Assembly (NCBI RefSeq): GCF_016026235.1
Contig: NZ_CP065613.1
From: Escherichia coli
GTDB taxonomy: Bacteria; Pseudomonadota; Gammaproteobacteria; Enterobacterales; Enterobacteriaceae
Strand: one strand, 5' to 3'
DNA length: 64,000 bases
In this document: positions 4,351 to 5,691 of the stretch, in pieces
Layout: each line of letters begins with the position of its first letter
How positions within the stretch are numbered: position 1 is the first letter of the stretch
Translations under genes and position numbers: made by a program
The notes under the pieces: generated by a model
Told to the model about the DNA's origin: nothing
What the model saw: only the letters and a program-made list of their open reading frames with translations
Database searches by the model: none

Positions 4351-4355
4351 GTAAT
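4351..4355. repeat. IS2 target-site duplication, left copy (GTAAT)
   Basis: GTAAT immediately left of IS2 terminus; identical pentamer at 5687..5691. Confidence 0.85.
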
Positions 4356-4446
4356 TAGACTGGCCCCCTGAATCTCCAGACAACCAGTATCACTTAAATA
4401 AGTGATAGTCTTAATACTAGTTTTTAGACTAGTCATTGGAGTACAG

Positions 4447-4812
4447 ATGATTGATGTCTTAGGGCCGGAGAAACGCAGACGGCGTACCACACAGGAAAAG
4501 ATCGCAATTGTTCAGCAGAGCTTTGAACCGGGGATGACGGTCTCCCTCGTTGCCCGGCAACATGGTGTAGCAGCCAGCCAGTTATTTCTCTGGCGTAAGC
4601 AATACCAGGAAGGAAGTCTTACTGCTGTGGCCGCCGGAGAACAGGTTGTTCCTGCCTCTGAACTTGCTGCCGCCATGAAGCAGATTAAAGAACTCCAGCG
4701 CCTGCTCGGCAAGAAAACGATGGAAAATGAACTCCTCAAAGAAGCCGTTGAATATGGACGGGCAAAAAAGTGGATAGCGCACGCGCCCTTATTGCCCGGG
4801 GATGGGGAGTAA
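4447..4812 (+). CDS. insC: IS2 transposase OrfA (InsC)
   Basis: [56 protein letters not shown]...; the ORF-track 136-aa version starts 15 codons upstream. Confidence 0.9.
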
Positions 4813-5675
4813 GCTTAGTCAGCCGTTGTCTCCGGGTGTCGCGTGCGCAGTTGCACGTCATTCTCAGACGAACCGATGACTGGATGGATGGCCGCCGCAG
4901 TCGTCACACTGATGATACGGATGTGCTTCTCCGTATACACCATGTTATCGGAGAGCTGCCCACGTATGGTTATCGTCGGGTATGGGCGCTGCTTCGCAGA
5001 CAGGCAGAACTTGATGGTATGCCTGCGATCAATGCCAAACGTGTTTACCGGATCATGCGCCAGAATGCGCTGTTGCTTGAGCGAAAACCTGCTGTACCGC
5101 CATCGAAACGGGCACATACAGGCAGAGTGGCCGTGAAAGAAAGCAATCAGCGATGGTGCTCTGACGGGTTCGAGTTCTGCTGTGATAACGGAGAGAGACT
5201 GCGTGTCACGTTCGCGCTGGACTGCTGTGATCGTGAGGCACTGCACTGGGCGGTGACTACCGGCGGCTTCAACAGTGAAACAGTACAGGACGTCATGCTG
5301 GGAGCGGTGGAACGCCGCTTCGGCAACGATCTTCCGTCGTCTCCAGTGGAGTGGCTGACGGATAATGGTTCATGCTACCGGGCTAATGAAACACGCCAGT
5401 TCGCCCGGATGTTGGGACTTGAACCGAAGAACACGGCGGTGCGGAGTCCGGAGAGTAACGGAATAGCAGAGAGCTTCGTGAAAACGATAAAGCGTGACTA
5501 CATCAGTATCATGCCCAAACCAGACGGGTTAACGGCAGCAAAGAACCTTGCAGAGGCGTTCGAGCATTATAACGAATGGCATCCGCATAGTGCGCTGGGT
5601 TATCGCTCGCCACGGGAATATCTGCGGCAGCGGGCTTGTAATGGGTTAAGTGATAACAGATGTCTGGAAATATAG
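4770..5675 (+). CDS. insD: IS2 transposase OrfB (InsD), DDE catalytic domain; overlaps insC in the -1 frame
   Basis: 301-aa [33 protein letters not shown]...; overlap geometry typical of an IS3-family programmed frameshift. Confidence 0.9.
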
Positions 5676-5686
5676 GGGCAAATCCA

Positions 5687-5691
5687 GTAAT
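5687..5691. repeat. IS2 target-site duplication, right copy (GTAAT)
   Basis: GTAAT immediately right of IS2 terminus. Confidence 0.85.

Follow-up and report, generated by a model that had tools for sequence, protein, structure and literature searches.

The presence of a complete insertion sequence within a fimbrial adhesin gene raises the question of what kind of event it represents: plain inactivation of the gene, a change in the expression of its neighbors, an instance of selected loss of the fimbriae, or an error of assembly. Such a case is found in a 64,000-nucleotide stretch of the Escherichia coli contig NZ_CP065613.1 (assembly GCF_016026235.1; hereinafter, the window), where an IS2 element interrupts ydeQ, the gene for a FimH-like adhesin. 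An examination of this stretch by sequence-only reading considered the insertion recent and suggested that promoter activity directed outward from IS2 could alter the expression of adjacent genes. The evidence described below indicates that this is almost certainly an ordinary IS2 insertion that inactivated ydeQ (fmlH) in the ancestor of a small, IS-rich clade with a decaying f9 operon. The features of the locus are collected in Table 1.

Table 1. Features of the interrupted adhesin locus and the surrounding f9 region (window coordinates)
Feature	Position	Strand	Evidence
ydeP, separate neighbor downstream of ydeQ, intact	1033..3312	-	NCBIfam YdeP equivalog, 1835 bits
ydeQ/fmlH 3' fragment, codons 69/70 to 304 and stop	3646..4355	-	
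Target-site duplication, left copy (GTAAT)	4351..4355	.	single in uninterrupted alleles
Complete IS2 (IS3 family), 1331 bp	4356..5686	+	1326/1331 vs K-12 IS2A
IS2 IRL, 42 bp, variant A32G	4356..4397	+	41/42 vs published IRL (PMC3299598)
orfA/insC, 121 aa, IS2 repressor and N-terminal part of transposase	4447..4812	+	NCBIfam NF006928
A6G slippery window AAAAAAG, programmed -1 frameshift to OrfAB transposase	4764..4770	+	sequence; PMC3299598
orfB/insD, 301 aa, DDE/rve catalytic part	4770..5675	+	NCBIfam NF006918
98-aa fusion ORF, 70 YdeQ residues, 28 IS2-encoded residues and stop	5600..5896	-	
IS2 IRR, 41 bp	5646..5686	+	41/41 vs published IRR (PMC3299598)
Target-site duplication, right copy (GTAAT)	5687..5691	.	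sequence reading
ydeQ/fmlH 5' fragment, codons 1-70 (signal peptide and mature residues 1-46)	5687..5896	-	
ydeR, FimG-like minor subunit, intact	5956..6459	-	
ydeS, FimF-like minor subunit, intact	6472..7002	-	
f9 usher, 883 aa, intact	7016..9667	-	
f9 chaperone, intact	9709..10428	-	
Major-subunit gene remnant, ending at the deletion junction 11099/11100	10780..11099	-	

The element combines the structural hallmarks of IS2, namely the exact length of 1331 bp (start, TAGACTGGCCCCC; end, GGGGCAAATCCA), the characteristic IRL and IRR, two ORFs that overlap at the slippery AAAAAAG heptamer, matches to the IS2 TnpA and TnpB models, and a 5-bp duplication of the target, the GTAAT direct repeats that flank it at 4351-4355 and 5687-5691. 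Both ORFs are intact: the orfA product matches NCBIfam NF006928 (IS2 TnpA) over the full length with 276 bits (cut-off 229), and the orfB product matches NF006918 (IS2 TnpB) with 728 bits (cut-off 597), and a product identical to the latter is assigned to the Pfam families rve/rve_3. The same IS2 is marked ‘programmed frameshift’ by PGAP in the genome of strain FDAARGOS_943. The description of a complete 1331-bp IS2 bounded by GTAAT repeats, made originally from the sequence, is thus borne out by the exact termini, the intact ORFs and the 5-bp duplication.

Compared with IS2A of K-12 MG1655, which is located in yaiX and has the same length, IRL/IRR organization, orfA/orfB pair and A6G window, the element differs at 5 of the 1331 positions, without indels; the differences include A32G in IRL and T at position 4442, which is five bases upstream of the orfA start codon. 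The insertion site differs as well, and IS2A is flanked by ATTAC, likewise a 5-bp duplication, which reads GTAAT on the other strand. Other strains have copies 100% identical to the element in the window, on plasmids as well as on chromosomes and at loci that are not related, so that this IS2 variant appears to be mobile. Only one IS2 copy is present in the 64-kb window, which rules out a composite transposon or a second IS2 nearby.

The interrupted gene is encoded on the minus strand and is split after codon 70, with the duplicated pentamer consisting of codon 70 and the two final bases of codon 69. Joining 3646..4355 with 5692..5896 restores a 915-nt ORF (304 codons and a stop) that is identical at 915/915 positions to the annotated intact ydeQ of O157:H7 TR01 and EC1515 and differs from K-12 b1502 by 24 nucleotides and 4 amino acids. 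Both points noted previously, an insertion into codon 70 of a gene for a FimH-like adhesin and the recovery of 304 codons upon excision, accordingly hold to the nucleotide. A random 5-bp match is expected in about 1 of 1024 trials; in combination with the exact IS2 termini and with a known allele that is restored without a mismatch, this value excludes chance as the origin of the GTAAT repeats. Residues 25-184 of the restored protein are identical (160/160) to the crystallized FmlH lectin domain (PDB 6AOW), and residues 25-304 align with residues 1-279 of full-length FimH, with an E-value of about 1e-80, across the lectin and pilin domains. Because of this lectin identity and the FimH alignment, ydeQ is identified as fmlH, the gene for the tip adhesin of the F9 (Fml/Yde) fimbriae. 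FmlH is a Gal-binding tip adhesin that recognizes Gal-beta1-3-GalNAc/GlcNAc. The gene order of the window and of reference genomes places ydeQ at the end of the f9 operon, a set of six genes flanked by hipBA and ydeP, as in the published description of this operon (PMC3966885).

The break falls directly after precursor residue 70, that is, Y46 of the mature protein. In the FmlH structure, Y46 lies in binding loop 2 and caps the pocket, which is formed by loops 2 and 3 (PMC5866590). Loop 3 and the pilin domain are encoded downstream of the break. With its ORF split after codon 70, the gene is a pseudogene in this genome, and what is left of the product is the signal peptide with the first 46 residues of the adhesin and a junk tail of 28 residues. 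Since most of the lectin domain and all of the pilin domain are missing, this product cannot function as an adhesin. The strain is therefore incapable of making FmlH, at which drugs and vaccines against chronic urinary tract infection are aimed and which also contributes to the colonization of plants and calves; the insertion itself is of little importance.

The history of the site was reconstructed from 5426 complete E. coli genomes that were searched with a 600-nt query from the joined flanks, uninterrupted being defined as coverage of at least 80%. The empty site is uninterrupted in 5211 of these 5426 genomes, with 100% identity in nine, as anticipated from the sequence, and K-12 MG1655 carries an intact 915-nt ydeQ with no IS2 at this position, in agreement with the earlier expectation for K-12. 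Both junctions are recovered as single alignments in a single complete genome of the 5426, that of FDAARGOS_943 (NZ_CP065615.1), where PGAP places IS2 between two pseudogene fragments, ‘fimbrial protein, missing C-terminus’ and ‘fimbrial protein, missing N-terminus’. The allele is therefore already known, being annotated in RefSeq for this strain.

FDAARGOS_943 shares with the window the identical junctions and duplication, together with a 949-bp promoter deletion (see below), and over window positions 1..7442 the identity is 99.987%, with one mismatch, T versus A at 4442, inside IS2. Elsewhere in the window, about 21 SNPs over some 45 kb (about 0.05%) separate the two sequences. Unlike the window, FDAARGOS_943 has lost the usher and chaperone genes through an IS1-associated deletion, lacks about 9.2 kb from hipA to lsrK, and carries additional IS1, IS5-family and ISEc60 copies. 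The 98-aa fusion ORF recurs in exactly the same form among the called ORFs of six public contigs, including those of GCA_900449985.1, which matches window positions 1..11897 with 0 mismatches and one homopolymer gap, and GCA_002466675.1, which is 100% identical over 5011..11896.

Neither half of ydeQ has acquired any extra substitution, which suggests that the insertion is evolutionarily young; it is also common to the diverged FDAARGOS_943 and the NCBI assemblies and so predates the split between these strains. On these sequence comparisons, the insertion is lineage-specific and young, yet older than the divergence of the carrier strains. The assertion that the event is recent is thus upheld to the extent that the insertion occurs in 1 of the 5426 complete genomes and the gene halves are unmutated, but not in the sense of a fresh insertion in the sequenced isolate, given that it is shared with FDAARGOS_943 and at least two NCBI assemblies. 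It can serve as a clean lineage marker for this small IS-rich clade of E. coli.

The mechanism established for IS2 is copy-out/paste-in, whereby the OrfAB transposase, produced through the -1 frameshift, generates a figure-of-eight intermediate and then a minicircle, and the integration of the latter yields a 5-bp duplication (PMC3299598). Under this scheme, an IS2 minicircle formed by OrfAB would have integrated through a 5-bp staggered cut in ydeQ/fmlH, the last gene of the F9 operon, truncating the protein after mature Y46, in an ancestor shared by the source strain of the window, FDAARGOS_943, GCA_900449985.1 and GCA_002466675.1. The same lineage has sustained a second, independent lesion, a deletion of 949 bp in which the f9 promoter was lost together with the start of the major-subunit gene.

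That lesion is located at the opposite end of the operon, which is encoded on the minus strand and extends from about 11.1 to 3.6 kb. An alignment with EC1515 and O157:H7 TR01 places the deletion at the junction 11099/11100 and shows that it took 244 nt of the major-subunit 5' coding sequence and a 251-nt leader, along with the -10 and -35 elements of the f9 promoter and part of a yneL-like HTH pseudogene. These promoter elements were mapped in CFT073 by Wurpel et al. (PMC3966885), and the corresponding ATTATG...TGACTA motif is visible in the EC1515 row of the alignment, within the deleted block. No intact copy of the major-subunit gene is present in the window. Of the complete genomes, FDAARGOS_943 alone has the deletion junction, and it belongs to the clade that also carries the IS2 insertion. 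The loss of the f9 promoter and the major-subunit 5' end was missed in the sequence-only reading. Judging from these two independent inactivating lesions, IS2 and the 949-bp deletion, the f9 operon is predicted to be non-functional and decaying; the remaining fimbrial genes may be transcribed from elsewhere.

Such decay is common for this operon. In the survey of Wurpel et al. (2014), the f9 operon (ydeQRST/fml/c1931-c1936) was disrupted by deletion, truncation or IS in 17 of the 42 genomes (40%) (PMC3966885); the disrupted operons resemble the one in the window in their location between ydeP and hipBA, the frequent inactivation by deletion, truncation or IS, and the variability of the 5' region. 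The ydeQRST remnant of K-12 retains an intact ydeQ but has neither major subunit nor chaperone and only an incomplete usher, whereas in the window the usher and chaperone are intact, and the adhesin and the promoter/major-subunit region are damaged. Insertion sequences have inactivated other silent chaperone-usher loci as well, albeit in other genes and positions, none of them ydeQ codon 70. Examples include IS2::yqiG in K-12 (PMC3032704), IS5 between ydeP and ydeQ in RR1 (PMC5379014), and the de novo IS2 insertions in ydeT, yraJ, ycbV and ybgQ of K-12 during long-term stationary phase (PMC7858067). The case described here is a textbook element and a textbook event, in an operon that is known to decay often.

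Chimeric queries that join a 300-nt chromosomal anchor to a 300-nt IS2 end also retrieve IS2 copies at other positions up to 800 bp from the anchor, each scan covering one orientation of IS2; the counts refer to genomes rather than to phylogenetically independent events, and three controls within 16 kb were built in the same manner as the f9 queries. In the stretch that begins at ydeQ codon 70 and extends across ydeR into ydeS, IS2 is found in 26 other genomes in the orientation seen in the window and in 16 in the reverse orientation, which rules out a strict orientation bias in the f9 genes. Judging from the alignment spans, these copies in the ydeQ 5'/ydeR/ydeS stretch occupy roughly 20 distinct positions, mostly within the 504-bp ydeR. 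The 3' end of the usher gene harbors IS2 in 24 genomes, at about 11 distinct positions, and the 3' part of ydeQ in four genomes with full coverage and in one with 79% coverage. By comparison, the controls yielded no genomes for an autotransporter beta-domain (54% GC, often a pseudogene), none for the body of ydeP (53% GC) and one for an intergenic stretch next to lsrK (35% GC). These counts agree with the uniform expectation of about 1.5 per scan (18,824 chromosomal IS2 places, genomes of ~5 Mb, 800 bp, one orientation). The f9 stretches have a GC content of 42-46%; with the 35%-GC control nearly empty, base composition alone fails to explain the excess, and AT-richness was rejected as a sufficient cause of the IS2 density in the f9 genes.

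Turning to the alternatives to ordinary inactivation, a repeat-induced misjoin could in principle have placed an IS2 copy in ydeQ, considering the many IS2 copies of this lineage (FDAARGOS_943 has about 19 places vs a median of 4 per genome); the probability of such an artefact is practically negligible because at least three independent assemblies show both junctions with the perfect 5-bp duplication and because a target-site duplication is not producible by a misjoin. Another possibility is that an outward or hybrid promoter of IS2 alters the expression of ydeP or the fimbrial genes and that the insertion was retained for that effect. The geometry differs from the one initially assumed, in which the left end of IS2 faced ydeR/ydeS as well as the ydeP region: IRL (4356) faces the ydeQ 3' fragment and ydeP, and it is IRR (5686) that faces ydeR and ydeS. 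As far as is documented, the outward promoter parts of IS2 are limited to a -35 element in IRR (PMC3299598, PMC9330008), which created fusion promoters at ampC, acrEF and neo, where the flank must provide a correctly spaced -10 (PMC9330008). In the minicircle, the abutted ends form the strong promoter Pjunc, whose -35 comes from IRR and whose -10 comes from IRL, a spacer of 17 bp being mandatory (PMC3299598). The putative outward -35 hexamer in the window is TGGAAA at 5665-5670, a position derived from this spacer rule; the flanking hexamer at 17 bp is TAATCA, a 2/6 match to TATAAT, and at a spacing of 18 bp there is AATCAT, with a 4/6 match, which lends the regulatory reading some support. 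However, this -35 points antisense to the ydeQ 5' fragment, ydeR and ydeS, and on the plus strand downstream of IRR the next gene appears only after about 9 kb. A consensus promoter scan found no sites at either IS2 junction, and over 2.8 kb it returned 3 sites compared with 4.7 expected by chance. The contrast with the fusion promoter at ampC (Jaurin & Normark 1983; PMC9330008) is instructive: the element and the outward -35 of IRR are the same, but at ampC IRR abuts a correctly spaced -10 and the gene is on the same strand, whereas here the -35 reads in the antisense direction and finds no usable -10 at 17 bp. On the other side, IRL has an inward promoter only, and ydeP, located 1 kb away, keeps its own 333-bp upstream region with its promoter. 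Polarity effects on the other fimbrial genes are not an issue, as the operon ends with ydeQ. On the scan and the 2/6 match at 17 bp, an outward or hybrid promoter at either IS2 end was rejected, and the suggestion that such a promoter changes expression here is not supported. We infer that IS2 probably exerts no regulatory effect on the neighboring genes; retention for a regulatory effect is thus highly improbable, even though a weak antisense hybrid promoter (TGGAAA, 18-bp spacer, AATCAT) may fire.

A different kind of explanation accepts the inactivation and holds that this and the other IS2 insertions in the f9 genes were selected because loss of F9 is beneficial, for example, by saving costs or by helping the cell to evade the immune system. 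The occurrence of IS2 in f9 genes of dozens of genomes at many positions, against 0, 0 and 1 in the three flanking controls, is compatible with this explanation, as is the disruption of f9 operons in 40% of the surveyed genomes (PMC3966885). The operon, however, is silenced by H-NS at 37 C (PMC3966885), and the cost of keeping it is probably low. Moreover, the promoter is also deleted in this lineage, so that one of the two lesions had no functional consequence, and IS2 has been observed to insert de novo into ydeT of K-12, an already dead remnant that is beyond selection for loss (PMC7858067). Adaptive loss therefore appears unlikely, although less so than a regulatory role. The same distribution of insertions could reflect a tolerance of insertions in these genes or the targeting of IS2, which inserts non-randomly near curved DNA (PMC3299598). 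It is conceivable, as a tentative proposition on which we would stop somewhat short of relying, that the distal f9 genes (ydeQ-ydeR-ydeS-usher) form a regional IS2 hotspot across E. coli that results from target preference (e.g., for curvature or for DNA bound by nucleoid proteins) and not from selection. Such a hotspot is the only mildly novel reading of this locus, and the broader pattern could bear modestly on how the target choice of IS elements shapes the decay of silent adhesin loci. For the insertion in the window, ordinary inactivation of ydeQ by IS2 remains the preferred interpretation.

Five other IS2 copies, four in f9 genes and K-12 IS2A, are all flanked by 5-bp duplications, those in the inspected f9 examples being GTTGT, CTGGT, GTAGC and AGCGC. 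A target consensus was sought among GTAAT, GTTGT, CTGGT, GTAGC, AGCGC and ATTAC, and none emerged; the reverse-complement coincidence of GTAAT with the ATTAC of IS2A involves two cases only. Among the inspected examples, one strain carries two IS2 copies with an inversion between them.

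The part of the F9 fimbrial operon that lies beside the IS2 copy splitting ydeQ (fmlH, encoding the F9 tip adhesin) may be a regional hotspot for this element. In 800-bp scans of complete E. coli genomes for IS2 next to chromosomal anchors across 5692-7800 (the ydeQ 5' part, ydeR, ydeS and the usher 3' end), the element was found in 26, 16 and 24 other genomes, at varied positions within the F9 genes and in both orientations, compared with 0, 0 and 1 genomes for scans of the same kind in three nearby control stretches. In strain 33-6 (NZ_CP050031.1), an IS2 pair in inverted arrangement occupies ydeS and ydeQ, with swapped flanks and a CCGGG duplication divided between the two copies; this sharing out of the duplication indicates that the ydeQ'-ydeR-ydeS' segment of that strain was inverted via IS2.

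At the upstream end of the operon, 949 bp have been lost at the junction 11099|11100 (10780-11100); the missing DNA covers 244 nt of the major-subunit gene together with its leader and the mapped F9 promoter. Of the 5426 complete genomes, FDAARGOS_943 (NZ_CP065615.1), the close relative that carries the same IS2 junctions, is the only one to share this deletion; many other genomes have different deletions in the F9 5' region.

Over the first 7.4 kb, the sole mismatch between the window and FDAARGOS_943 is located within IS2, at position 4442 (T in the window, A in FDAARGOS_943), in the ribosome-binding spacer, 5 bases ahead of the start codon of orfA. Given that the T form is carried by IS2 copies in other strains that are 100% identical to the one in the window, this difference suggests either a mutation or gene conversion among IS2 copies. 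The duplication of K-12 IS2A in yaiX, ATTAC, is the reverse complement of the GTAAT at 4351-4355; this match is probably a coincidence because it involves only two cases and four other duplications show no consensus.

Four window segments are deleted or replaced by IS1 in FDAARGOS_943 (see the table), and within this IS-rich clade, the source of the window is the member with less decay. The autotransporter gene of the ECSE_1600 family contained in the longest of these segments is itself interrupted in the window by ISEc20, an insertion also present in a few other genomes, such as EC22. Compared with FDAARGOS_943, the window shows 2-bp insertions that cause frameshifts in lsrA (GA, 24335-24336) and lsrD (AG, 26867-26868), and an in-frame 15-bp difference in lsrC (25602-25616), whereas FDAARGOS_943 lacks the lsrK 3' end. 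Barring sequencing error as the cause of the indels, the AI-2 uptake operon seems to be decaying separately in the two genomes.

Features of the window beyond the F9 IS2 insertion
Feature	Coordinates	Strand	Remarks
Usher and chaperone	7443-10515		gone from FDAARGOS_943
hipA 5' part, hipB, autotransporter, lsrK 3' end	11801-20978		gone from FDAARGOS_943
PTS EIIC gene	46242-47417		gone from FDAARGOS_943
Part of EamA transporter gene	48120-49243		gone from FDAARGOS_943
Autotransporter gene pieces (ORFs)	13161..14675; 16185..17939; 17887..19917
ISEc20	~14744-16213		IS110 family ('RNA-guided transposase' family)
ISEc20 transposase ORF	14975..16171	+
Serine invertase/resolvase-like protein	62359..62949	+	196 aa; weak match, Mpi/Pin family

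Past ydfJ, the window departs from FDAARGOS_943 (61029-64000); this stretch, which encodes the invertase-like protein, is probably the border of a Qin-like prophage remnant.
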